Below, one piece after another: positions 1,911 through 12,568 of a stretch of DNA of 12,568 nt. Source of the DNA: a virus (lineage: Duplodnaviria; Heunggongvirae; Uroviricota; Caudoviricetes); the IMG/VR virus record IMGVR_UViG_2740892115_000002. One strand, written 5' to 3'. Positions within the stretch are counted from its first letter, which is position 1; every line of letters starts with the position of its first letter. Position numbers and translations under genes: made by a program. The notes under the pieces are model-generated. The model did no database searches. It had not been told where the DNA came from and saw only the letters and a list, made by a program, of their open reading frames with translations.

Positions 1911-2130
1911 ATCAACGGGTTAGGCCAGAGTGCAAATTTGCACTCTGGAACAATTCCAACCAGTTATCGGCATCAGGCCCACCAGCCAACGCAATTTTGA
2001 GCTTTGCTTTAATCTCAGTGAGTTACCGCGCCAATTTCCGCAGTCTGTGTAAATTGGGAAGAATCAACGGGTTAGGCTGGTTTCCCCGATGTTCGCCGCT
2101 GGCGAATTTCGAAAATATCAACCAGTTACC
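1911..2130 (+). repeat. Four direct copies of a 12-14 bp motif ATCAAC(G/C)(G/A)GTTA
   Basis: Copies at 1911-1925 (atcaacgggttaggc), 1955-1968 (tccaaccagttatc), 2063-2077 (atcaacgggttaggc), 2117-2130 (atcaaccagttacc). All in the same orientation in ORF-free DNA; the last overlaps the stop of the 93-aa ORF. Confidence 0.6.
1925..1948. promoter_or_regulatory. 24-bp perfect palindrome ccagagtgcaaa/tttgcactctgg; candidate dimeric protein binding site or recombination core
   Basis: First half ccagagtgcaaa is the exact reverse complement of second half tttgcactctgg. Directly abuts the first ATCAACGGGTTAGG repeat. No flanking T-run on either strand, so not a terminator. Confidence 0.5.
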
Positions 2131-2407
2131 GCCGTAACCGCTCCGGCTTCTTCCAGTGGTACGTAATTTTTGCTTTTTCCCTGTACGTCTGCACGCGGCG
2201 ACGGTAGGCCAGCATTTCAAGAACGCGGATCCGTATGTCGCGCATATCAACATCATTAAGCTGGATACCATCACGGCGCATCACCTCAGCAACAACACGC
2301 ACATAATTTTCAGCGGTCACGCTGTCCGGCTGTGTGGCCTGTTCGTCATGCTGCTGGCTGATTCCGGTAACGCGGCGGATTAATCCCAGTAGTTCGGCTT
2401 CTGTCAT
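2126..2407 (-). CDS. Hypothetical 93-aa protein adjacent to the cos region
   Basis: ORF with GGGGG Shine-Dalgarno-like sequence 4 nt upstream of the ATG. Basic C-terminus. The opposite-strand ORF 2156..2383 looks like a low-complexity antisense artifact. No family recognised. Confidence 0.5.
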   Translation of the reverse strand: MTEAELLGLIRRVTGISQQHDEQATQPDSVTAENYVRVVAEVMRRDGIQLNDVDMRDIRIRVLEMLAYRRRVQTYREKAKITYHWKKPERLRR

Positions 2408-2440: not shown

Positions 2441-2670
2441 CGGGTCCTTCCTGGAATTATGGCCCGTTACGGGGCGGCGACCTCGCGGTTTTTCGCTATT
2501 TATGAGATTTTTTGAGGGGGTGGTTGTTGTTTAATTGTTTGGTATATCTAATTGATAAGTAAGGTAAAAATAAAATAAATACAACAACCTTACGATGTAT
2601 TTTGATGTCATTAATGTGAAAAAATTCAATGATATCAAATGGTTTTGTAAAAACACATGGTTGTTGTATC
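2441..2670 (+). other. cos-like site A (rightward orientation): lambda-type cosN plus GGTTGTTGT repeat set
   Basis: 2462-2487 gcccgttacg|gggcggcgacct|cgcg matches the lambda cosN and 12-nt cohesive end GGGCGGCGACCT as I recall it (core 2472-2483), followed by TTTTTCGCTATTTATGA as in the lambda left end. Inward repeats GGTTGTTGT at 2522-2530 and 2659-2667, inverted ACAACAACC at 2581-2589, with AT-rich spacers. Confidence 0.6.
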
Positions 2671-2844
2671 GCGTATTTGATGGCGTAACAGAAAGTGATT
2701 TTTAACTTTACCGCTCTGTAACTACGGATTATTCCATGCTGGCACGGAGAACGGCTACGGCATGACGCCACCCAGCCTATACAGAACAGTAAAGCCGATA
2801 AATTGTTAATCACGCGCAGCAATGCGTGTGATTTTTGCACACTT

Positions 2845-3038
2845 CCGGTTAACGGGTACGATGTCCGGTTTTAGTGTCTGTTTTTTGCGCATGTCCGGTT
2901 CATAGAAAGCATGTTTTTATATTTTTCATATGGTTAACTTGCAGAGAAACCGGACATGGATCCCGGAAAATTTTCATAAATAGTGAAAACGCGCGAGGTC
3001 GCCGCCCCGTAACGGGCCATAATTCCAGGAAGGACCCG
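2845..3038 (-). other. cos-like site B (leftward orientation): lambda-type cosN plus ATGTCCGGTT repeat set
   Basis: Read on the minus strand from 3038: cosN (core 2996-3007), then CGTTTTCACTATTTATGAAAATTTTCCGG, which is nearly identical to lambda sequence just inside cosN from memory. Then ATGTCCGGTT-type repeats at 2948-2957, 2891-2900 and 2861-2870 in a direct/inverted/inverted pattern, spaced roughly 50, 105 and 135 bp from cosN, reminiscent of lambda R3/R2/R1 with an AT-rich stretch between. Confidence 0.65.
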
Positions 3039-3039
3039 T

Positions 3040-3062
3040 AAAAAAGCCGGATTTCTCCGGCC
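3040..3062 (-). terminator. Rho-independent terminator after the late-type operon
   Basis: Stem gccgga/tccggc (3047-3052 / 3057-3062) with loop tttc. On the minus strand it is followed by a 7-U run (plus-strand A-run 3040-3046). Lies immediately after the stop of the 137-aa ORF. Confidence 0.7.
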
Positions 3063-3067
3063 TTGTC

Positions 3068-3481
3068 TCAGATGGTTTTCAGTATGCGATCGATGTCGCC
3101 GTCATCGCCCTGGTTTCTGCCATCGTATGCCATGCCAGCTGATACGGCTTGCGGGCTGTGCATGTCCATAAAGTTTTCAAAGGCTGCGGTAAGCTCTGGT
3201 GCAACCTTTGGGCGCTCCTGCTCTATGGTCATGTTCAGGATTTCACGAGCATTATCGACGCTAATACATGGCACGTTTGCCATTGCACGTAACAGCGGCT
3301 GATAGTCTTTATGCTCATGAAGCGCCATAATCGCATCAGCGCGCGGCTTGTCCTGCTCTTCCAGTTTGTTTAGTTGATATACGGCCTCATAGGTTGATAA
3401 ACCTCTGTCAGCCATTGCCCGCGCTTCGGCTTTAAATTTACTCGCCAGCGGTAGCGTCATGATGCTTTCATTCGTTGCCAT
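3068..3481 (-). CDS. Hypothetical 137-aa protein, last gene of the capsid operon
   Basis: ORF 12 nt downstream of the gpD-like gene on the same strand, followed by the terminator. No family recognised. Confidence 0.55.
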   Translation of the reverse strand: MATNESIMTLPLASKFKAEARAMADRGLSTYEAVYQLNKLEEQDKPRADAIMALHEHKDYQPLLRAMANVPCISVDNAREILNMTIEQERPKVAPELTAAFENFMDMHSPQAVSAGMAYDGRNQGDDGDIDRILKTI

Positions 3482-3493
3482 CGTTCCCCCTGC

Positions 3494-3829
3494 TTATCGG
3501 GCCAGCGGCTGAACGGATACGCCGGAACCCGCAAAGGCGGCGCATTTTTTCGCATCGGTGTCGACGCTCTCAGGCCAGTTAACGGCGGCAATATTGAATA
3601 TCCCCGTCTTGTAACACTGTGCTGATTTCTGCTTTGACGTGTCCACAGGGTACGAGGTCAGATAAACAGCCTTGCCAGATTCCTTACCATCCCACGGCTT
3701 AAACTCGCCATTGTCCGCCAGCATCAGCGGGGTAAATTCCTGAATAACGCCAGCATCAGCGGCAAAATGTACCAGCGTCGTGGCGACCTGCTGACTGCCT
3801 GCAAATAACTCAATGTATGGAGTGTCCAT
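3494..3829 (-). CDS. Head decoration protein, lambda gpD-like (111 aa)
   Basis: Size and motifs resemble lambda gpD from memory: TPLMLAD, WDG, YKTGIF...WPE, KKCAAFAGSGVSV versus lambda TPLMLD, WDG, YKSGTF...WPE, KKRTAFAGTAISIV. Confidence 0.75.
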   Translation of the reverse strand: MDTPYIELFAGSQQVATTLVHFAADAGVIQEFTPLMLADNGEFKPWDGKESGKAVYLTSYPVDTSKQKSAQCYKTGIFNIAAVNWPESVDTDAKKCAAFAGSGVSVQPLAR

Positions 3830-3840
3830 AGAATCCCCCG

Positions 3841-4896
3841 TTAACCAATTTTGACGGTAACAAATTTGCGAATATCTGCCGGAACCGGCTGCGGTGCGCT
3901 GTGCGTCTGCACGTACTCAATCGCCGGATCGCCGTCCTCAATCCAGTTTTTCGGGTAAAACATGTTTTGCGTTGCGCCCGTTCTTACTGCGTCCTGATCC
4001 ATAATCGCACCATAGGCCACCAGCCCTTTATTGTTGGTGTTGCCCAGGACAAGCAAATCAGGCTCAAGGAAATATTTTTCTGTGCCGTCGCTGTCAGTGT
4101 ATTTGCCGGAATAGACGATAAGGGCAATATCGCCCAGATAGCCTTTAAAGCTCACCACTTCGCCCAGGTTTTTACAGGCCAGCTCTGCGGCGGACTCTGA
4201 ACCACGGGAAAGATCGTACAGCTCACGGAATTTTTTAAAGCTGCGTAACGTTCGCCATACCTCAGCGCCCATAATCATGACGTTTGCGGGGCAACCAGCC
4301 TGATCGGCGTATAGTTCGATATCATAGATTGGATCGTGGGTTTCTTTGTCCTGCTCTGACCATTTTTTCCCGTCGGCCTGCTCTATGATGTTTTTTTCCG
4401 GTATCTTCCAGTCGATTTCATAGCGCTCTATGCCTTCGCCTTCAATGATGTTTTTTCCGGTCGTTACCGCATTTACCGCCAGCCATTCCACGCGCGCTTT
4501 TATGGCGTTTATCTGGCGGCGCATATTGCCAGTAATCAGGCGCATACGGCGATAGGTAGGGTCGTTAAGCTGTGCCGGATCTTCTCCAGCCATGCGCATG
4601 ATGGTTTTCGTTGGATCGATTTCGTGCTTTGGCTTCATGTAGCCAGGTTTAATCGTGCTGGTTTCGTACCCTTTATCGCGCTGAACCTGGCTACCCACCA
4701 TAGGCGAACAAAACGCCGACATGGTGACTTCTTCAATGTCCAGGGTATCCAGCATGATGTTTTGCGTGCTGAATGTCGCCACGTTCGGGAAAAACAGCGT
4801 GGTAAACAGCGGACTGAATTTAAATTCCGCAATATCCCCGCGATTCAGGTACGCAAAAAGCTGGTTAGTGTTAAGTGCCATTGCTTTTACTGTCAT
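3841..4896 (-). CDS. Major capsid protein, lambda gpE-like (351 aa)
   Basis: Multiple conserved blocks shared with lambda gpE as recalled: FKFSPLF..LFF, KPGYMKPKHE, EDPAQLNDPTYRRMR, WSEQDKETHDP, RGSESAAELACKNLGEVVSFKGYLGDIALIVYSGKY, VLGNTNNKGL.AYG, YPKNWIEDGDPA, SAP. Start overlaps the upstream ORF stop (TAATG). Confidence 0.88.
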   Translation of the reverse strand: MTVKAMALNTNQLFAYLNRGDIAEFKFSPLFTTLFFPNVATFSTQNIMLDTLDIEEVTMSAFCSPMVGSQVQRDKGYETSTIKPGYMKPKHEIDPTKTIMRMAGEDPAQLNDPTYRRMRLITGNMRRQINAIKARVEWLAVNAVTTGKNIIEGEGIERYEIDWKIPEKNIIEQADGKKWSEQDKETHDPIYDIELYADQAGCPANVMIMGAEVWRTLRSFKKFRELYDLSRGSESAAELACKNLGEVVSFKGYLGDIALIVYSGKYTDSDGTEKYFLEPDLLVLGNTNNKGLVAYGAIMDQDAVRTGATQNMFYPKNWIEDGDPAIEYVQTHSAPQPVPADIRKFVTVKIG

Positions 4897-5102
4897 TATT
4901 CACCCCCGTGAACCTGATTCATACCCAGCGCCGCGCGTAAATAGGCGCGTACCTGCCAGCCTGTTGACGGCTCAACCATCGCCAGCGGATCAAGTCCTGC
5001 CGCAATGCCTGCTTTTACGTTCTGCTGGTGGCGTTCCTTGAGCGCCTTCACGATGTCGGGGCTTATGTACACCGAAATACCGCCTTTTTTCTCTTCAGCC
5101 AT
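4896..5102 (-). CDS. Hypothetical 68-aa protein, first gene of the capsid operon
   Basis: AGAGGAA Shine-Dalgarno-like sequence upstream of the ATG at 5102. Stop overlaps the capsid start by 1 nt, suggesting translational coupling. No family recognised. Confidence 0.5.
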   Translation of the reverse strand: MAEEKKGGISVYISPDIVKALKERHQQNVKAGIAAGLDPLAMVEPSTGWQVRAYLRAALGMNQVHGGE

Positions 5103-5137
5103 AGTAAGAAATTCCTCTTTGACTTAAAAAATCATAA

Positions 5138-5187
5138 CTGGATGTTCATCCAGCTCTGATTATAATCAGGATTGCATTTTGTGCAAT
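5138..5187 (-). promoter_or_regulatory. Candidate late-operon promoter overlapped by three adjacent palindromes
   Basis: Palindromes ctggatg-tt-catccag (5138-5153), ctgattataatcag (5156-5169) and attgca-ttttg-tgcaat (5171-5187). On the minus strand, TATAAT (5164..5159) with TTGCAC about 16 nt upstream (5186..5181), placing a start site about 50 nt upstream of the ATG at 5102. Confidence 0.45.
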
Positions 5188-5265
5188 GATATTGAGTTGT
5201 GTTGCAAATTATGAAATGATTATCCCGATCATGTGTGTCAGTGCACCAAAAAGCCTCATATGCAA

Positions 5266-5305
5266 AAGCCCGATAAGCCACCTCTGACCTTATCGGGCTT
5301 TTTTA
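5266..5305 (+). terminator. Plus-strand rho-independent terminator with no annotated plus-strand gene upstream
   Basis: Stem aagcccgataag / cttatcgggctt with an 11-nt loop, followed by TTTTTTAT on the plus strand. Confidence 0.5.
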
Positions 5306-5469
5306 TCTGCCTGCAAAGATGTCGAACAAAAATTAACCACAACCATCATCTTTTTTGCATCAAAACAATTAAAAACAATAAATTACGCTCATGATGATGA
5401 TGACGATAAAATCACAAAAATGCGCTTTTTTCCGCGCTTCCCGCCCCGTGTTCAGGCCCACCCCGCCAG

Positions 5470-5492
5470 GAGGACCCGTAAAAAAGCCGGAT
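5470..5492 (-). terminator. Rho-independent terminator after ssb
   Basis: Stem gccgga/tccggc with loop ttgc, followed on the minus strand by a U-run (plus-strand A-run 5470-5476). Nearly identical in sequence to the terminator at 3040-3062. Confidence 0.7.
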
Positions 5493-5517
5493 TGCTCCGG
5501 CTTCTGTCTCTCGTCGC

Positions 5518-5940
5518 TTAAAACGGTATGTTATCCCCGTACGGATCATCATTCCCCGCCTGTTGTTTTGCCCTGTTCAGCGCGTCAGTAGCCTGGCCCT
5601 GTTGACCTTTTTTGCCGCCCAGTCGCGCCGTTCGCGCACTGATTACACTGTCTGCGATAACCTGCCAGCCCTGCCGCGTTTCTCCGTTCTGCCCAGTCCA
5701 CTGGCTGATCTGCATGTTACCCGCCACGCTCAGGAGTTCACCCTTGCGGTGCCTTTCCAGTGCTTCGGCCTGTCTGCCAAATGCCAGGACGGATAACCAC
5801 ATCGTCGCCGTTCCGTCATCTGCCTGGCTGCACGGAAGGGGGACCGCCATACGCGCCAGCGTCATCGGTGTGCCCTTGCTGGTCTGTTTTACCTGCGGGT
5901 CGTCCACCAGCCGCCCGTAAGCTGCTATCTGTGCTGTCAT
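5518..5940 (-). CDS. ssb: Single-stranded DNA-binding protein (SSB-like, 140 aa)
   Basis: OB-fold-like N-terminal region with SSB-like blocks (LSVLAFGRQAEALERHRKGELLSVAGNMQISQWTGQNGETRQGWQV), Gly/Gln-rich linker, and acidic C-terminal tail ending DDPYGDNIPF, comparable to the DDDIPF tail of E. coli SSB. Confidence 0.8.
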   Translation of the reverse strand: MTAQIAAYGRLVDDPQVKQTSKGTPMTLARMAVPLPCSQADDGTATMWLSVLAFGRQAEALERHRKGELLSVAGNMQISQWTGQNGETRQGWQVIADSVISARTARLGGKKGQQGQATDALNRAKQQAGNDDPYGDNIPF

Positions 5941-6215
5941 GATTCCACCTCTCCGGTTTTAACGTTGATGGTTGTTACCTGTTCCGCTTCGGCAATCTCC
6001 CGCTCTGTCAGCGTGGCAAAATTTGCCGCCGTCGTGGTCATGAATGCGCTTATCAGTTCGGGATGTGCTTTCGCGTATCCTTCCCCCGCGTGGCGGTCTA
6101 TCGTTCTGATTGCCACCTTTAAAGCGTGCTCTGTCATGTCTAACGCGCGATATTTCGGTTCTGTTCTGTCTCTGCGTTTTTTGAGTGATTTATTAAATTT
6201 CCCTGAAGTGTGCAT
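5937..6215 (-). CDS. Hypothetical 92-aa protein translationally coupled to ssb (start uncertain; internal Met at 6137 possible)
   Basis: Stop overlaps the ssb start (ATGA). Lies directly 3' of the iteron origin. No family recognised. Confidence 0.45.
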   Translation of the reverse strand: MHTSGKFNKSLKKRRDRTEPKYRALDMTEHALKVAIRTIDRHAGEGYAKAHPELISAFMTTTAANFATLTEREIAEAEQVTTINVKTGEVES

Positions 6216-6259
6216 ATTTATTTTTACCCCCTCGTTTAAAAAGTTTTGAGTTGTGCCTC

Positions 6260-6495
6260 CCCTTGTCTACCTTATCTACCTTAGTGGCCCTCATGCCAGT
6301 AATGGCGCGGCTTTCAGCGGGGTAGAGTGCTTTTATCCACTATCTACCCCGTGTCTACCTCCCTGTCTGATTCAGGTAAAATCAGGTAGAGAGGGTAGAT
6401 AGTGGGTAGACAGTAAAAAAAGGCTATCTACCTAACTTAATGCACTGAATTAAATGTATTTTTCTTTACTCAGGTAGACAGGGTAGACAGCAATT
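6260..6495. repeat. Replication origin-like iteron array (about 11 copies of the 7-bp unit TCTACC / GGTAGA in both orientations around an AT-rich core)
   Basis: gtctacc and atctacc at 6265-6280, ggtagag at 6321, atctacc and gtctacc at 6342-6359, ggtagag-ggtagat-ggtagac at 6386-6411, atctacc at 6426, ggtagac-ggtagac at 6474-6489, with an AT-rich segment at 6434-6471. Located immediately 3' of the primase-helicase gene, as in satellite and PICI origins. Confidence 0.7.
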
Positions 6496-6503
6496 ACAAA
6501 AAA

Positions 6504-8258
6504 TTATAAAAACGCGTCGCACTCGTCTGTTGTTATTGCGTTAGTCTGCGTTACCCCCTTAACTTTCCGCGTAATATATTCATGTCCGTAAACTTTTGCG
6601 GCAGGCTTCATAGCCTTTCCAAAGTCATTTACGTTTAGCGGTTTGCTCCTGCCTGCGTATGCCATAAACGCCAGATAGACGCGGTAAAGGCTGTTCCTGG
6701 TCGTGTACTTCACTGAATCGCCACCGCCCCCCATCATCAGGCCGCGCGCTTCCTCCAGAAAATTCAGGAACTGGCAAAACTCAATAACCGGATCCGTCTG
6801 TTGCTTTATTGCCAGTGCTTCATCACCGTCACGCTGTTCCAGTAGTAAAGCCCGTGCCTTCTCAGGGTCGGTAAAGTTCGCCAGCAATCGGCGGATAATG
6901 ACAGGGATTTCAGCCGCGATCTTTTCCGGTAGCTCCCTGTCTTTTTCGGCCTCACTGACGATATTGTCGAAACGGAAAATCACGCGACGACGTGCCACAC
7001 CTCCGGCCCGTTCGGTGAATATCATCGGGTTATTGTTGGTCGCCAGCACCACCGCCCTGATTACAGCCGTGAAACGCTTTTCGTATTTCGGGTTAATTTC
7101 CACGGGGTCACCGCCCGTGATTTTCTTGATGCCCGTTCCTTCGCCTGTATATTTCGGCTGGTCAGCCAGGACGATAAGACGACTCCCGACAACCTGCGCA
7201 CGTCCACCAGCATCATCAAGCGATGTCATTTCAGCGCTTACCGTGTTCTGTTTCCCTGCCAGAAGGCTGGCTATGTGCGTGAATGTACTTTTACCGCTCC
7301 CGCCGTCTCCGGTGGCCTCAATAAACATCTGCCAGTCGTACCGGTTCGCCATAATCATGTACAGCGCGGCACATATACGCATCATCTTGCGCGGGTCTTT
7401 TCCGGCTGCGTGCTCAAGCCATTTATGAAAGTTTGGCGCGTTATCGCGGATGTTCTCCCCTGGTGCTGGTGGCGTGTACTCAATGCCGTTGTGCGTGGTG
7501 ATCCAGTTCTCCGGCGTGTGCGGGGAAAATCCCCCCGTTTTCAGGTCAAGCGCACCATTGGCGAACGGCAGCAAATCGCCGGACGGCTCGCCCATTGGTT
7601 CGGCAATAACTTTTAACGCTTCCACGGCGTTATTGATTACGCGCTTGCTGAAAGTGGCCCTGTGCTCTGAATAGATCGCCACCATTTCGCGGCTAAGTTC
7701 CATTGTGCTGACCGGACACCATACCCCGCCGCGCCATACGTGAACGATTTCACTTTCAGGATGTACGCAAACGCCATCAAAGCGATCGGCAAGCAGCTGC
7801 GCGCGCTCACTGTCCGCCATCTGCGAAAGTTGCGCCTTTTGCTTTACCGGAAGCTCAATGACCAGACCATCAGAAAGATTCTGGCGCTCACGGGCCAGAT
7901 ATTCGCGCCAGTTCTCCACCTTCTGACCGTGCATACCATCAGGGTAAAAATTTGCATCCTGTACGCCTGCCGCCGCCAGCTTCTGGCCAATCGCCTTTAT
8001 CATTACTGGCGCAAGATATCCGGCCCTGAATATGCGCACGGATTTTCTGCCTTCCGGCACAATTTGCAGCTTATCCAGTTCTGATAACTGCTGCTCCCCA
8101 AGCCACACAGGAGGCTCATTATCTCCGGCCATACGCGCATCATGTTCCTGCCATTGTTTCGCGTGTGCCCAGGCATCACTACCCGCAAAAATAATGACTT
8201 CTGTTCCTTTGTGTTTTATGCCGCGTGACTGCTGTTTTACGTTCGGTGCCAGTTTCAT
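6504..8258 (-). CDS. Replication initiator, P4 alpha / D5-family primase-helicase-like (584 aa)
   Basis: Walker A motif GDGGSGKST and downstream D5/P4-type helicase-like blocks. Size and position (upstream of iterons) fit a pri-rep gene. AGGGG Shine-Dalgarno-like sequence; start overlaps the upstream ORF stop (ATGA). Confidence 0.8.
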   Translation of the reverse strand: MKLAPNVKQQSRGIKHKGTEVIIFAGSDAWAHAKQWQEHDARMAGDNEPPVWLGEQQLSELDKLQIVPEGRKSVRIFRAGYLAPVMIKAIGQKLAAAGVQDANFYPDGMHGQKVENWREYLARERQNLSDGLVIELPVKQKAQLSQMADSERAQLLADRFDGVCVHPESEIVHVWRGGVWCPVSTMELSREMVAIYSEHRATFSKRVINNAVEALKVIAEPMGEPSGDLLPFANGALDLKTGGFSPHTPENWITTHNGIEYTPPAPGENIRDNAPNFHKWLEHAAGKDPRKMMRICAALYMIMANRYDWQMFIEATGDGGSGKSTFTHIASLLAGKQNTVSAEMTSLDDAGGRAQVVGSRLIVLADQPKYTGEGTGIKKITGGDPVEINPKYEKRFTAVIRAVVLATNNNPMIFTERAGGVARRRVIFRFDNIVSEAEKDRELPEKIAAEIPVIIRRLLANFTDPEKARALLLEQRDGDEALAIKQQTDPVIEFCQFLNFLEEARGLMMGGGGDSVKYTTRNSLYRVYLAFMAYAGRSKPLNVNDFGKAMKPAAKVYGHEYITRKVKGVTQTNAITTDECDAFL

Positions 8259-8554
8259 TTTTTACCCCTGAATCCTTTAATCATGGTTTTCATCTTCTGA
8301 ATATTGGCGCGTGCTTTCTCCCTGCTGGTGGGCACGTTACGCGGTACGGCCTGCACAAGAGAAAAATCACGGTCGAACTGATAAACAGGCATCACGCAAT
8401 CATATTCGTAGCCTTCACGACGGTAGGTTACGCGCCGTTCCTCCACGCCCTTAATCATTACCGTGCCGCCGTACTTATCGCGGTAAATATCACCGCGCAT
8501 GAATTTAGTGCGAGTTTTGCCACTGGCAGTTAAGCCAGAATATTTAAGTTTCAT
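8255..8554 (-). CDS. Hypothetical 99-aa basic protein, translationally coupled to the primase gene
   Basis: ORF ending in an ATGA overlap with the primase start. Lys/Arg-rich. No family recognised. Confidence 0.55.
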   Translation of the reverse strand: MKLKYSGLTASGKTRTKFMRGDIYRDKYGGTVMIKGVEERRVTYRREGYEYDCVMPVYQFDRDFSLVQAVPRNVPTSREKARANIQKMKTMIKGFRGKK

Positions 8555-8559
8555 TATTT

Positions 8560-8793
8560 TTATTCTCCGGTGTGGGGCGCTTTATACTGGTCGTGTAATG
8601 TCTCTATTTCCTGCAACTCATTTATTACAGGCTCAAGAAGCGTTATTAATGCCGTGACAATCCTTGATTTCTGTTTATCACGTTCATTATCTCCAAGCGT
8701 TTCAAGACATATGCGCAATATTTCCAACATATTTTCACTGTGAGAAAGTGCAAGAAATGCGCGGTCTATTGTTTCGTGGTAAATATCACGCAT
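8560..8793 (-). CDS. Hypothetical 77-aa protein
   Basis: Tightly packed same-strand ORF in the operon upstream of the primase gene. Confidence 0.5.
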   Translation of the reverse strand: MRDIYHETIDRAFLALSHSENMLEILRICLETLGDNERDKQKSRIVTALITLLEPVINELQEIETLHDQYKAPHTGE

Positions 8794-8794
8794 A

Positions 8795-9229
8795 TTAATC
8801 CCCGTCCGTCGTTTTTCTTAAAATAACCTCTGTCACGAAATCAGCATAATCGGCGGCGATATTCAGTACATCAAGCCCCGTTGATTTATATTCTCTCGTG
8901 GAAAGTAAGAAAAAATCCGCTCTAATAAGCTCTGGCATTGACGAAAGCGCATCAGCCGCATCATCAGGAACGCCGGAAAATTCCTGTTTCAGGGAATTAA
9001 AACGATCATCACGCATAACCCCCCCATTTTCACAATCAGCAACAAGAATATTTTTAGCGTCATTCAGCGACCGCGTTGCGATGTATCGGATACATTCCAG
9101 GGCGAACTGTGTCCGGTCTTTCTGTTCTTCTCCCTGCGCAAGCTCTGCCGTGCATTCAATATCAATAAGCGCGTGCATCAGCGTAGTGAGTGCGGCGGCG
9201 GCTGCGTCCGGTGTGGTTTTATTGCACAT
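8795..9229 (-). CDS. Hypothetical 144-aa protein (the ORF extends to 9283, but a GGAGGGG Shine-Dalgarno-like sequence favours the ATG at 9229)
   Basis: ggaggggtacATGtgc context at 9229. This start overlaps the stop of the upstream 76-aa ORF by about 11 nt. Confidence 0.5.
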   Translation of the reverse strand: MCNKTTPDAAAAALTTLMHALIDIECTAELAQGEEQKDRTQFALECIRYIATRSLNDAKNILVADCENGGVMRDDRFNSLKQEFSGVPDDAADALSSMPELIRADFFLLSTREYKSTGLDVLNIAADYADFVTEVILRKTTDGD

Positions 9230-9449
9230 GTACCCCTCCGCATTTTTTTTCGTTAGAAATAAGCGTTCTTCTTTCCTGTTCATCGCTCAGGAATACGCAG
9301 ACCTCACCGCTAAGGCGTTTAAGTAAGCCGATGATTGCCCCTGATTCGCTGTCGGTCATCATGCCAGGGTAATCCTCTGCCAGTGCGCAAATAACTTCGA
9401 TTTGGTGGGCGCGTTCTGCTGCCTGTTGTAGTGTGATTTCCTGGCTCAT
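9219..9449 (-). CDS. Hypothetical 76-aa protein
   Basis: ORF whose start overlaps the stop of the upstream frame (ATGA at 9446-9449), part of the tightly coupled operon. Confidence 0.5.
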   Translation of the reverse strand: MSQEITLQQAAERAHQIEVICALAEDYPGMMTDSESGAIIGLLKRLSGEVCVFLSDEQERRTLISNEKKCGGVHVQ

Positions 9450-10732
9450 AAGCCTACCCCCTGACGAATACGGGCAGCAAATACCATCACGCAGCCAGCC
9501 GGAGATTGCTGGCGTGCTTCCTGTTCGCTGGTGGCCTCAATGGTAATCACGCGCGGTTGTGCCGTGCTCAGGGCGATAAAACGCCAGATGTATTTATTCA
9601 GGTTGTGCGAGTCCCGCCCTTGCGGGTGTGTGGTATGATTTAACATAGCTACCTCGATACTTTCGCTATCGTTGGTGGTTAGAAGCCCTGCGAGTGGTAA
9701 CGACACTTGCGGGGCTTTGCATTTATGCACCTTGATAATCTCAAGGTGTGGCCCACTATATGCTTTAGGTGTGGCCCACGTCAAGGGTTTTATTTGTGCT
9801 TTTTCTGTGTATACTGTCCCCCACCAATCCAACAGAGGAATAGAAATGGCAACGGGTACAACAAACGCAAAATCACAAGCTCTAAAGGCTCGTGTACCAC
9901 ACGAAATAGTAAACGCCATGGAATCAGTGAAAGAATCAGGCGAAAGCACATCACAATTCATCATTGCGTCAATGCAAGGCGAGATCAAACGCCGCCAGCG
10001 CCGCAAGGCCAAAGAGCAGGAGTAACCATCACCAGCGCCGTGGTGTGAGTAACTACGGCGCATTGCTATGCAGGACAACACAATGACCGATAAAGAATTG
10101 ACCAAAACATTATCACCGGCACGGAAAAGACGGCGCAGAAAGATAGAGCATGAATCAGAAAGATTCGCGCCATGTGCTTTTGCCCTTGAGCAATTCCTTA
10201 AAGAGTACAGGGAAAAGCGCTCATTGCAGGTATGGCAACGAACTGAACCTGACTGATTGCATTGCCCACCAGCCGCAAATGTGGCATTGTTGGCAATGCT
10301 CATGCGTTGGGGATAACGTGTAGCTTGTGTCGAGGGGCCACCGTAGCGGGTGGCCTTTGTTTTGCCCGTTATTCGGCAATTGTGGCGCTTCTCCACATGG
10401 TTGATATAATCCCACTGCTCAGATTCATTTTTTGCGCAGTAGGTTAATTGTTCACAAAGGCGCTCCGGCAACGGGGCGCTTTTTGTTTTTATTAGTTTGT
10501 AGAAACCTGACTCAGAGATAATGCTCATATTCTGATTGCCGTCAGGGGTGTAAGTTAAATTTACTCCCTTTTTATCATCAAACATCTGCAACGCTCTGGC
10601 GTTAACAATATTGGTTTCACTCCCGCCAGTAAGGCCGGAAATAACCGGAATAATTTCGGCAAAATTTTGCAGATTCTGTTTTTCAGGACGAACGAAGCCC
10701 CGCCCTTGTTCGGGAGAATATCCAGTATTCAT
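9446..10732 (-). CDS. Uncertain 428-aa open frame; likely a real N-terminal domain (about 115 aa from 10732) and/or a short C-terminal gene (possible start 9643, 66 aa), with the middle unlikely to be coding
   Basis: The N-terminal part has normal protein-like composition (NLTYTPDGNQNMSIISESGFYKLI, faintly like phage antirepressor N-domains). The central part is Cys/Arg/Ser-rich and antisense to two plus-strand small ORFs with good Shine-Dalgarno-like sequences. No in-frame stop until 9446. Confidence 0.3.
   Translation of the reverse strand: MNTGYSPEQGRGFVRPEKQNLQNFAEIIPVISGLTGGSETNIVNARALQMFDDKKGVNLTYTPDGNQNMSIISESGFYKLIKTKSAPLPERLCEQLTYCAKNESEQWDYINHVEKRHNCRITGKTKATRYGGPSTQATRYPQRMSIANNATFAAGGQCNQSGSVRCHTCNERFSLYSLRNCSRAKAHGANLSDSCSIFLRRLFRAGDNVLVNSLSVIVLSCIAMRRSYSHHGAGDGYSCSLALRRWRRLISPCIDAMMNCDVLSPDSFTDSMAFTISCGTRAFRACDFAFVVPVAISIPLLDWWGTVYTEKAQIKPLTWATPKAYSGPHLEIIKVHKCKAPQVSLPLAGLLTTNDSESIEVAMLNHTTHPQGRDSHNLNKYIWRFIALSTAQPRVITIEATSEQEARQQSPAGCVMVFAARIRQGVGL
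9744..9779. promoter_or_regulatory. Divergent control region with two direct 13-bp repeats AGGTGTGGCCCAC (9744-9756, 9767-9779)
   Basis: Repeats 23 bp apart in the intergenic region between the minus-strand small-ORF operon and the plus-strand RHH-like gene. A TATACT -10-like hexamer at 9811-9816 lies upstream of the plus-strand ATG at 9846. Confidence 0.5.
9846..10025 (+). CDS. Small ribbon-helix-helix-like DNA-binding protein (59 aa), candidate island repressor or regulator
   Basis: AGAGGAA Shine-Dalgarno-like sequence 5 nt upstream of the ATG. Sequence pattern of a beta-strand followed by two helices (KSQALKARVPHEIVNAMESVKE...STSQFIIASMQ) and a basic tail RRQRRKAKEQE. Family assignment is by pattern only. 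Confidence 0.5.
   Translation: MATGTTNAKSQALKARVPHEIVNAMESVKESGESTSQFIIASMQGEIKRRQRRKAKEQE
10083..10256 (+). CDS. Possible small basic protein (57 aa from the ATG at 10083; the ORF is open from 10068)
   Basis: AGGA 7 nt upstream of the ATG at 10083. Contains an RKRRRRK stretch. Weak support. Confidence 0.3.
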   Translation: MTDKELTKTLSPARKRRRRKIEHESERFAPCAFALEQFLKEYREKRSLQVWQRTEPD

Positions 10733-10784
10733 GGTTAGATCTCTGTATTAGTGGATGGGTGGCGGCTGTGTGCCGCCAGCCTGA

Positions 10785-10973
10785 TTAGTGAACTGCCTCG
10801 CAGCTGTCCTTCCATGCCAGAACTTCGGATAAAGACCAGCCAACGGAACGACCGCCCAGCTTACGCCGTGATGGGAATTGTCCGGCTTTTTCCAGGCGGT
10901 ACCGACATGAGCGGCTCAGGCCTGTAAGTTGCTGACATTCTTTTTCACGTATAAAGCGATCTGTGCTTAACAC
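10785..10973 (-). CDS. alpA: AlpA-family (phage Xis/MerR-like) transcriptional regulator, 62 aa
   Basis: Matches the AlpA pattern as recalled: LTGLSRSCRYRLEKAGQFPSRRKLGGRSVGWSLSEVLAW versus AlpA TG..R.TIY......FP....LG.KSVGW...EI..W. Position next to the integrase is typical. Confidence 0.75.
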   Translation of the reverse strand: MLSTDRFIREKECQQLTGLSRSCRYRLEKAGQFPSRRKLGGRSVGWSLSEVLAWKDSCEAVH

Positions 10974-11254
10974 AATTCCCCCTTTGTTGTTTCTTAAAGA
11001 GTCATTGGGTGGATTATTGGGTTGGGTTGTGTCGGATTGTGTCAGGGTGTTTGTGGAATGGCAAACACTGGCGGCGGTCGTTTTACAGAAGCAGGGGAAA
11101 TGAGAATAAAAACTCTTTTAATTCATTATGATGCAAAGGCATAAAATTTTACTTTTACGCCTTTTTTACATATTTTTAAGAGTGATTCGCCAGTGTATAA
11201 AAAAACAGTACACCTATAAAAATCAAATGGTTATTACGATGGCTGATTTTTAAC

Positions 11255-11313
11255 CCGTTGTTCCATTTTGTTCCTTGTTGTTCGTCGTTGTGTCTCGTTG
11301 TTTCACGTTGTCC
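11255..11313. repeat. Six tandem copies of a CGTTGT-containing unit at about 10-bp periodicity, directly 3' of the integrase gene
   Basis: ccgttgttcc / ttttgttcc / ttgttgttcg / tcgttgtgtc / tcgttgtttc / acgttgtcc, with units starting near 11256, 11267, 11277, 11286, 11296 and 11306. A related GT-rich set (ggttgtgtc, gattgtgtc) lies at about 11025-11055 near the alpA 5' region. Confidence 0.6.
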
Positions 11314-11338
11314 GCATCCTGAAAAATCGCAAAAAAAA

Positions 11339-12568
11339 TTATATTTCTCTGGCTATTGGCAATGTGGTTACGTTTTCATGTGTTCCCGCCAGTATCCCTA
11401 ACCGCTCCGTCCACATATCCAGCGCGTCACGTTTCGCATCCAGATAACGGGAATGGTTATAGACTCGTTGCATCCCTGGCATCTGATGACCTGTAAGCTG
11501 CTCCACGACGTGAGGATCCACGCCTAAATCGTTCAGCATCGTTGTAAAGGTGCGCCGGATGTCATGCAGTGACCAGTGAGGGTGTTTTAGCCTCCTGTGC
11601 GCTAATCTGCCGTACTGCGACACGCTTGTTTCCTGTTTCACTTCCCCCAGCAATAAGCCCGTGTGCCTGTTCTGCTCCACCAGCTGCGTGACGAACGGCA
11701 GTATTGCTTCCGGTATGGGCCGGAATATTGCCACCTTCGTTTTGCTGTGTTCTTTCGGCACGGTCCAGAGCATTTCGGTAAAATCCCACTCGCTGATCTC
11801 CGATAACCTCAGTTCTACCGTCCGGCATCCGAAAACAATCAGGAGGCGGATTAGTGCGACGTAGTAAGGGGAAAATATTTTTTTGTCCAGTGCCTGCAAT
11901 AATTCGCCAAGTTCTTTGGTGCTTAAGACGCGCTCGCTTATATCCGGTTTTTTCCCAACGTCCGCCACACTCATATCATCAAGAACGTTGCTGATTGCAT
12001 AGCGCCGCCTCCGGCAGAACTTAAGCGCCTGTTTGCACGTCTGTAGCAAGAATCCGGCAGTAACAGGCGTTCGCTTTGCCACCTGGTCAAAACAGGCCAG
12101 CCAGTGCCGTAGCTCGCATTTATCCAGCGGCATAGCACCAATGTGCTGTATTACGTGATTATTAAGGCGCTTTTTCAGGGCGGCATAATCCACGCGGTTT
12201 TCCTTTGCGTACGACTCAAGCCAGTAGGTGAGCGCATCGCCAACCGTTACCGGCTTTAACGCTTCCTGTACGGTGTAATTCATTTCATGACGTGGATTTT
12301 TCCCCTCTGCCAGCCATGCGCGACACTGGGCGGCTTTTTCCCTGGCTGATTTCAGGCTCAGATCAGGATAATTTCCCAGCTTAATGCGTTCCGGTGGTGC
12401 CCCCCTTCCCGTTCCGGCCCTGTAAGTGAAATACCAGGTTAAAAGGCCACTGGTTGAATGCCTGACGCTCAGGTTTCCACCGTCATTAAGAAAGGCTGTT
12501 TTTTGGGCGGGTGTGCCGTTGATTTTCCTCAGCTGTGTATCGCTCAGTTTGTTAAGTGCTCTGCTCAT
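11339..12568 (-). CDS. int: Tyrosine recombinase, P4-type integrase (409 aa; start codon at the window edge)
   Basis: N-terminal arm-binding-like region typical of P4-family integrases (DGGNLSV...W.F.YR......R..LG.YP..SLKSAREKA...AWLAEGKNP). C-terminal catalytic region includes HDIRRTF and HxxR...Y (RVYNHSRY). The start lies on the last base of the window, so an upstream in-frame start cannot be excluded. Confidence 0.9.
   Translation of the reverse strand: MSRALNKLSDTQLRKINGTPAQKTAFLNDGGNLSVRHSTSGLLTWYFTYRAGTGRGAPPERIKLGNYPDLSLKSAREKAAQCRAWLAEGKNPRHEMNYTVQEALKPVTVGDALTYWLESYAKENRVDYAALKKRLNNHVIQHIGAMPLDKCELRHWLACFDQVAKRTPVTAGFLLQTCKQALKFCRRRRYAISNVLDDMSVADVGKKPDISERVLSTKELGELLQALDKKIFSPYYVALIRLLIVFGCRTVELRLSEISEWDFTEMLWTVPKEHSKTKVAIFRPIPEAILPFVTQLVEQNRHTGLLLGEVKQETSVSQYGRLAHRRLKHPHWSLHDIRRTFTTMLNDLGVDPHVVEQLTGHQMPGMQRVYNHSRYLDAKRDALDMWTERLGILAGTHENVTTLPIAREI

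Follow-up and report, generated by a model that had tools for sequence, protein, structure and literature searches.

Among phage-inducible chromosomal islands, or PICIs, EcCICFT073 is the experimentally studied Gram-negative cos island; it has two functional cos sites, in which lambda-like cosQ and cosN are combined with a non-lambda cosB, and its Rpp protein redirects the TerS of the helper phage to cos1 (PMC6092414; PMC6739421; PMC9026076). In this study, we analyzed the 12,568 nucleotides of the IMG/VR virus record IMGVR_UViG_2740892115_000002 (Caudoviricetes), referred to below as the window, which on the basis of gene content and insertion site is a PICI of the EcCICFT073 family adjoining phoQ. 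The subject of this report is a short repeat found at the ends of two operons of the island. Both of its copies are best read as a boundary unit in which a predicted Rho-independent terminator is joined to the cosQ of a lambda-type cos site, and we put the probability of this reading at about 75%.

The island and EcCICFT073 belong to the same family and share the phoQ site, an inverted cosQ-cosN pair corresponding to cos1 and cos2, and homologues of capsid and decoration proteins (PMC6092414; PMC6739421; PMC9026076); the same hairpin also lies beside the EcCICFT073 cos that follows the gene for a 137-aa protein. The window differs in having no rpp between its cos arms, in carrying a PhiR12-type cosB on the opposite arm, in the replacement of the cosB on the rpp side by an N15-like R3, and in possessing a third cos after the gene for the single-stranded DNA-binding protein (SSB), which EcCICFT073 does not have. 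Two other satellites, SaPIbov5 and the helper-embedded PICI 11capE, resemble this island in that the satellite copies the helper's own cos and does not redirect specificity (PMC10111431); those elements were described with one or two cos sites, whereas the window has three, with three types of cosB. In the PICI literature that we searched, neither the terminator-cosQ junction, nor a third cos, nor an rpp-less layout with three cos sites was found described.

The cosQ site is a highly conserved 7-bp sequence required for the termination of packaging, and natural lambda-like cohesive ends vary at bp 7–12 but keep their left half and the CG on either flank (PMC4669245). Common to the lambda family and the island are the GGGTCCT heptamer, the spacing of 23–24 nt and a 12-nt cohesive end that starts with GGGCGG and has CG flanks (PMC4669245), and the cosB segments of the island are homologous to the cos regions of real phages. 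The two differ immediately before cosQ, where lambda-family phages have a weak AT-rich inverted repeat and the island has a strong GC-rich terminator. In lambda itself, late transcription reads across cos; its cosQ reportedly lies at bp 48,473–48,479 and is said to have been delimited to 7 bp by mutagenesis.

Results

A search of the whole window with a repeat finder revealed a match of 31 nt with one mismatch (97% identity) between positions 3031–3061 and 5471–5501; when the leading ccagg(a) and one indel of 1 nt are included, the repeat extends over 3025–3062 and 5466–5501. The 18-mer CCGTAAAAAAGCCGGATT occurs exactly twice (3036–3053 and 5476–5493), against 0.01 occurrences expected from shuffled sequences. 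The repeat is real and far beyond chance. The sequence-only reading had reported a 38-bp module present twice; its first copy was placed correctly, and its second, given as 5455–5492, was set approximately 10 nt too far to the left. That reading had also identified the 14 bp at 3025–3038 as the outer end of an inverted-repeat arm, and the repeat finder recovered this arm at 2967–3038. Read on the minus strand, both copies have the form GCCGGAG(A/C)AAUCCGGC-UUUUUU-AC-GGGUCCU. They look alike because the left half is cosQ with its conserved flanks and the right half is the standard terminator of the island family.

The 9-bp stems of the two hairpins, folded as minus-strand RNA, gave −13.6 kcal/mol for copy 1 and −14.3 kcal/mol for copy 2. 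In each of them the loop is a GNRA tetraloop, a tract of six U follows directly 3' of the core stem, and this U-tract ends 2 nt short of cosQ. All of the genes neighboring the repeat are on the minus strand. Copy 1 would terminate a capsid-like operon (a 68-aa protein, the major capsid protein, the decoration protein and the 137-aa protein), its hairpin starting 6 nt past the stop of open reading frame (ORF) 3068–3481; copy 2 would terminate a replication operon (primase, a 92-aa protein and SSB), its hairpin starting 16 nt past the SSB stop codon at 5518–5520. Both hairpins are thus predicted canonical intrinsic terminators at operon ends, as had been proposed earlier together with the placement of a cos end exactly at a transcription stop. 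A scan of the window for consensus terminators listed neither copy, probably because the extension of the stem consumes three T of the tail, so that the identification is by folding; a search against Rfam at the gathering threshold gave no match in the window. The GC-rich stem, GNRA tetraloop, six U and position 6–16 nt past the stop are common to canonical Rho-independent terminators and the island copies, the sole notable trait of the latter being the fixed 2-nt distance to cosQ.

The coordinates of the terminators, of the three cos sites and of the adjoining genes are compiled in Table 1.

Table 1. Predicted transcription and packaging features of the window and the genes that adjoin them
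Feature	Position	Strand	Description
Inverted partner cos (arm A)	2442..2535	+	cosQ 2442–2448; cosN GGGCGGCGACCT 2472–2483; GGTTGTTGTTTAAT 2522–2535
Predicted cosB, arm B	2861..2995	-	phage-type; ATGTCCGG repeats at 2950–2957, 2891–2898 and 2861–2868
Predicted cosN cohesive-end sequence, arm B	2996..3007	-	GGGCGGCGACCT, lambda type, by motif; within the 72-nt inverted repeat
cosQ heptamer, cos of copy 1 (arm B)	3031..3037	-	GGGTCCT, by motif (AGGACCC on the plus strand)
Predicted terminator, copy 1	3040..3064	-	core GCCGGAGAAATCCGGC 3046–3061, GAAA tetraloop; stem out to 3043–3064; U6 3040–3045
137-aa gene, last of the capsid-like operon	3068..3481	-	RefSeq relatives named 'phage head-tail connector protein'
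Bidirectional terminator-like hairpin	5257..5309	.	inverted repeat AAAAGCCCGATAAG...CTTATCGGGCTTTTTT; bounds the third cos on its opposite side
Predicted cosB, third cos	5318..5434	-	phage-type, by alignment to VT1-Sakai; about 115 nt on the cosB side
cosN-like cohesive-end sequence, third cos	5435..5446	-	GGGCGGGAAGCG; CG on both flanks; left half GGGCGG conserved, right half diverged
cosQ heptamer, third cos	5471..5477	-	GGGTCCT, by motif (AGGACCC on the plus strand)
Predicted terminator, copy 2	5480..5504	-	core GCCGGAGCAATCCGGC 5486–5501, GCAA tetraloop; U6 5480–5485
SSB gene, last before terminator copy 2	5518..5940	-	PF00436, E = 4.9e-15

The GGGTCCT heptamer is present at all three sites, and assignment of the R sequences of cosB is by homology alone, namely 92.4% identity to the PhiR12 phages, 90–93% to Stx phages and a 14/14 match to a segment of N15 that overlaps R3. 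The cos opened by copy 1 (arm B) has a distance of 23 nt from cosQ to the cohesive-end sequence, and lambda has the same 23 nt when counted likewise. Over 2861–3044, the sequence shares 92.4% identity with the cos that phages PhiR12_1 to _5 carry between Rz and Nu1, and this cos and the second one of EcCICFT073 share 96%. The ATGTCCGG repeats in its cosB resemble the R core of a CFT073 prophage cos, which may be that of prophage 4. Prophage 4 of CFT073 has been assigned a 21-type TerS (Murialdo and Feiss, PMC9026076). The cosQ-cosN portion of arm B forms, together with that of arm A, an inverted repeat (2441–2512 and 2967–3038) of 72 nt with 93% complementarity and a spacer of 454 nt.

Arm A has the same 23-nt distance between cosQ and the cohesive end. 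It is without a terminator and abuts the start of a 93-aa gene (2126–2407, minus strand). Its 14-mer GGTTGTTGTTTAAT matches bp 50–63 of the left end of N15 at 14 of 14 positions, with an offset of 1 nt, and these base pairs lie within or next to R3-N15 (bp 48–60). The spacer enclosed by the inverted arms (within 2441–3038) contains cosB of two different types and is without rpp.

The sequence-only reading had fused a single copy of the module to a cos. This was correct for copy 1, which touches arm B, and incomplete for copy 2, which likewise opens a complete cos at 5318–5477. In this third cos, 24 nt separate cosQ from the cohesive end, a spacing identical to that in VT1-Sakai and 1720a-02. 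Positions 5430–5484 are 90–93% identical to Stx phages VT1-Sakai, 1720a-02 and CP-1639, in which the counterpart is intergenic, between Rz and the terminase genes (small, then large), and they also align with the right end of mEp460; a multiple alignment with VT1-Sakai spans 5318–5484. Judging from this homology, 5318–5477 is an unannotated cos of the Stx-phage (VT1-Sakai/1720a-02) kind. The third cos has GGACCCGT, like copy 1, where the Stx phages have GGACCCGC, and it is bracketed by predicted terminators on both sides. We also considered copy 2 as the relic of a degenerate half-cos and rejected this in view of the alignment with Stx-phage cos regions over approximately 165 nt. The hairpin on its far side (5257–5309) separates the third cos from what is probably the promoter region of the capsid-like operon.

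To what extent the arrangement recurs was examined in bacterial genomes, related islands and phages. A 42-nt query with the module matched 974 of 5,426 complete E. coli genomes, at a median of two places per genome, and all of the contexts inspected (6/6) were PICI-type islands; in E. coli the hairpin module is accessory and not a core terminator. The suspicion that it might be a generic terminator thus holds for unrelated bacteria, where the 22-mer of the hairpin with its A6 is widespread, and fails for the E. coli core. Islands of the family contain the hairpin at two or three places each. Phages have at the equivalent position a weak AT-rich inverted repeat with a T-run, at −3 to −4 kcal/mol as compared with −14 to −16 kcal/mol in the islands.

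Two samples were used for counting. The first consisted of IMG/VR contigs found via the hairpin 22-mer, 96 of 120 of which carry genes of the island family. Here, the GAAA-loop hairpin after the 137-aa gene was followed by cosQ in 43 of 44 cases. Of 29 GCAA-loop hairpins after SSB, 27 were followed by a cos whose cohesive end is of the G-7 variant, and in 18 of these cosQ was intact. The second sample was independent of the hairpin and comprised 80 island loci fetched through the 93-aa protein; a hairpin and T-run directly precede cosQ in 68 of the 72 cos sites that are co-oriented with the genes. These 68 hairpins are made up of 56 of the family type, four point variants, one of which scored under the cut-off and bore the output label 'no terminator', and eight of an unrelated sequence, GGCGGCACCAGCCGCC. 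A further hairpin before cosQ, GGGCGGCGATAGCCGCC, is the third version among islands, and the 2-nt spacing is kept in most of the variants seen. On these comparisons, what is specific to the islands is the fixed junction of the hairpin with cosQ, and not the hairpin itself.

The post-SSB position is occupied in relatives by several versions of cosB. With the entire 211-nt query, the third cos was found at an identity of at least 95% in approximately 150 E. coli genome records, and it is absent from EcCICFT073 and from the phoQ island of O157. Our regular-expression class 'vtN' (cohesive end GGGCGGG...) mixes true Stx-type sites with 21-like sites that have only the variant right half; since it cannot separate the two, no Stx-type cos after the 137-aa gene is claimed. 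A related island in an O157 strain (NZ_CP022050.2, 4256513–4268701) has a different GC hairpin before a Stx-type cos in the same hairpin-cosQ layout, carries a ClpP-protease/capsid fusion gene and shows a second cos-like segment after SSB; it adjoins a truncated prophage terminase gpA gene and may be helper-embedded.

The window extends from phoQ (1–1461) to a P4-type integrase (11339–12568). Pfam and PHROG searches identified between them a D5-type primase, SSB, a lambda E-like major capsid protein, a gpD-like decoration protein and small ORFs. As expected of the EcCICFT073 family, the integrase, an AlpA-like regulator, a primase/replication module and homologues of capsid and decoration proteins are present, oriented alike at a fixed chromosomal site, and both the gene order and the insertion site next to phoQ agree with EcCICFT073 in CFT073 and with the related islands of O157:H7, ST130 and HM670. 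HM670 is 99.94% identical over 2961–12568. The 137-aa protein at the end of the capsid-like operon matches weakly the C-terminus of a head-maturation protease family.

The only ORF between the cos arms (2496–2840) resembled neither CFT073 Rpp nor the Nu1-like protein of O157 and matched no family; as a homologue of either it was rejected, and its AT-rich translation looks spurious. Since none of the other window ORFs tested matched the Nu1 family or a helix-turn-helix family, the window is considered an rpp-less variant of the EcCICFT073 family. In the O157:H7 phoQ island, a 180-aa gene (8296–8838) lies between the inverted cos arms; it has a Pfam match to Nu1 (E = 3e-23), occupies the position that rpp has in CFT073 and adjoins an N15-like cosB.

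Several other features of the window were noted. Just downstream of the primase gene, the region 6330–6490 contains a cluster of direct repeats of TCAGGTAGAGAGGGTAGATAG (6382 and 6470) and an inverted repeat (6334–6349 and 6393–6408), which may be iterons of the replication origin of the island. Near the phoQ-side end there are three direct copies of GGAAATATCAACGGGTTAGGC-like 21-mers (1905, 2057 and 2111; span 1905–2131), and 1742–2062 has no counterpart in HM670. A minus-strand ORF of 428 aa (9446–10732) has a repressor-like C-terminus and weak Ant-like matches; over this stretch RefSeq relatives have only short genes annotated (Icd-like, YlcI/YnfO), on both strands, and rather than coding for a single protein the stretch may be an immunity region of the P4 type (Bro/eta).

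Discussion

If both copies of the repeat are boundary units as proposed, RNA polymerase transcribing the capsid-like or the replication operon would run into an intrinsic terminator with a U-tract that stops 2 nt short of cosQ, and termination at this point would keep transcription of the island off the cos sites. The helper terminase could then assemble on cosB, nick cosN and read cosQ at the end of packaging. Genes beyond the cos, i.e. rpp in relatives and the 93-aa gene here, would in addition be uncoupled from the upstream operons. We infer from the layout that the junction may thus serve both to terminate transcription and to insulate cos from it.

A number of observations weigh against this proposal. 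The cos of arm A has no terminator upstream of the 93-aa gene and is probably transcribed through, hence insulation would be no universal need; and rpp of CFT073, which lies beyond a terminated cos, must be expressed, implying that cosB contains a promoter or that the terminator leaks. The identical hairpin also occurs in these islands away from any cos, and about 55 other copies without an adjoining cos were counted in the 22-mer sample of IMG/VR. Beyond the islands, the 22-mer was found in at least 120 unrelated bacterial genomes, including Bacteroidota, Paenibacillus and Streptococcus, against a chance expectation that we estimate at about 0.1; the hairpin design has clearly arisen many times, and among the matches listed it is never beside cosQ. 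In approximately one-third of the cos sites after SSB in relatives, cosQ is altered to AGGTACT, which may be decay. Finally, the counts given above do not represent independent events because the surveyed islands are close relatives, their 93-aa proteins being at least 86% identical.

How the junction could have come about is suggested by the relatives. CFT073 and O157, which are without the third cos, have the GCAA-loop hairpin back to back with a terminator of the 5257–5309 type and only GGGCGC between them, and in the window, HM670 and ST130 a Stx-type cos cassette sits exactly in that gap. The joints of the cos segments fall in runs of T or A, and phages already carry a T-run 2 nt before cosQ, which fits the grafting of phage cos cassettes at the T-tracts of terminators; the T-run/A-run common to the terminator and to the cosQ-flanking phage sequence is the likely joint. 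Between the window and HM670 the breakpoint lies at about 2961, at the inner edge of the cos arm, and three different cosB types stand behind one hairpin-cosQ-cosN core in the window, CFT073 and O157. On these grounds, as a recombination tract the cos core would seem to matter at least as much as the hairpin. The PhiR12-type cosB of HM670 and CFT073 lies on the opposite arm, with rpp filling the rest of the spacer; compared with them, the spacer within 2441–3038 of the window seems to have been inverted and in part replaced, possibly through recombination of one arm with the other.

The same observations bear on the competing explanations. The cos cassettes might have inserted harmlessly behind operon terminators by T-run microhomology, leaving a junction without a function of its own. 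This is a serious rival, to which we would give clearly less than an even chance, and it stays serious because arm A is unterminated and rpp of CFT073 is expressed past a terminated cos. Neutral insertion would account for a third cos placed exactly between two terminators that adjoin each other in CFT073 and O157, for the T-run of the phages as microhomology to the U-tract, and for an inverted cos partner that works without a terminator in EcCICFT073. It accounts less readily for an arrangement seen again with several cos types and with GC hairpins of at least two unrelated sequences, with the 2-nt spacing retained in most variants and a hairpin and T-run at nearly all (68/72) of the co-oriented sites. 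Modular assembly of the island by recombination at the module, one copy being a duplicate of the other, had been put forward in the sequence-only reading. Part of this idea survives, in that the same hairpin borders different cassettes in relatives, with the end of SSB or PerC on one side and cos or GGGCGC on the other; the cosB swaps behind a shared core point the same way, and the GGACCCGT of the third cos is compatible with local gene conversion. As an account of the repeat as a whole it is unlikely, given that the HM670 breakpoint is at the edge of the cos arm and not at the hairpin, that the conserved cosQ-cosN core offers a longer and better tract of homology, and that family-wide the GAAA loop follows the 137-aa gene and the GCAA loop follows SSB or PerC, which speaks for separate copies of long standing and against a recent duplication.

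That the hairpin itself belongs to the packaging signal, as a structure in the DNA or a protein-binding site by which cosQ would be extended and which terminase would read, is very improbable. Phages do carry an inverted repeat, ATGATAAT..ATTATCAT, at an equal distance from cosQ. Against such a role, the hairpin sequence is not conserved among the islands (at least three versions), the identical hairpin is present without a nearby cos in the same islands and in unrelated bacteria, and cosQ has been described as a 7-bp site (PMC4669245). That two independent, generic terminators merely look alike deserves hardly any credence: convergent reuse of the design is evident from the unrelated genomes that share the 22-mer, but the match in the window runs past the hairpin and through cosQ over 31 nt, with one mismatch and 0.01 expected, and in relatives each copy is retained at its position. 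We therefore retain the reading of a terminator joined to cosQ at the indicated probability.

The presence of three cosB types, the absence of rpp and the switch of the PhiR12-type cosB between arms suggest a strategy based on several helpers and the shuffling of cassettes. Tentatively, and at rather less than even odds, the island may be an rpp-less element that, in place of redirecting the terminase of a single helper, has three phage-type cos cassettes of different specificity and is packaged by several unrelated lambdoid helpers, the conserved cosQ-cosN cores, the inverted pair among them, serving as the substrate of recombination and inversion through which cosB cassettes are shuffled between islands. 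These cassettes would be the N15-like R3, the PhiR12-type cosB resembling the 21 type, and the VT1-Sakai/Stx-phage type, of which the two co-oriented ones would have been grafted onto operon terminators.

Taken singly, the elements described here hold nothing unusual, and the satellite family they come from is known; the junction and the rpp-less layout with three cos sites are modestly new. A terminator alone would be routine, and the value of the repeat is as a marker of cos sites, one that exposed a third, predicted packaging site. In a common family of E. coli phage satellites, with the module in about 1,000 of the 5,426 complete genomes, nearly every cos co-oriented with the genes begins 2 nt past a strong predicted terminator. 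With three cosB types and rpp missing, the published question of why PICIs carry several cos sites becomes directly testable, and the answer bears on which phages, Stx phages included, can mobilize such islands.

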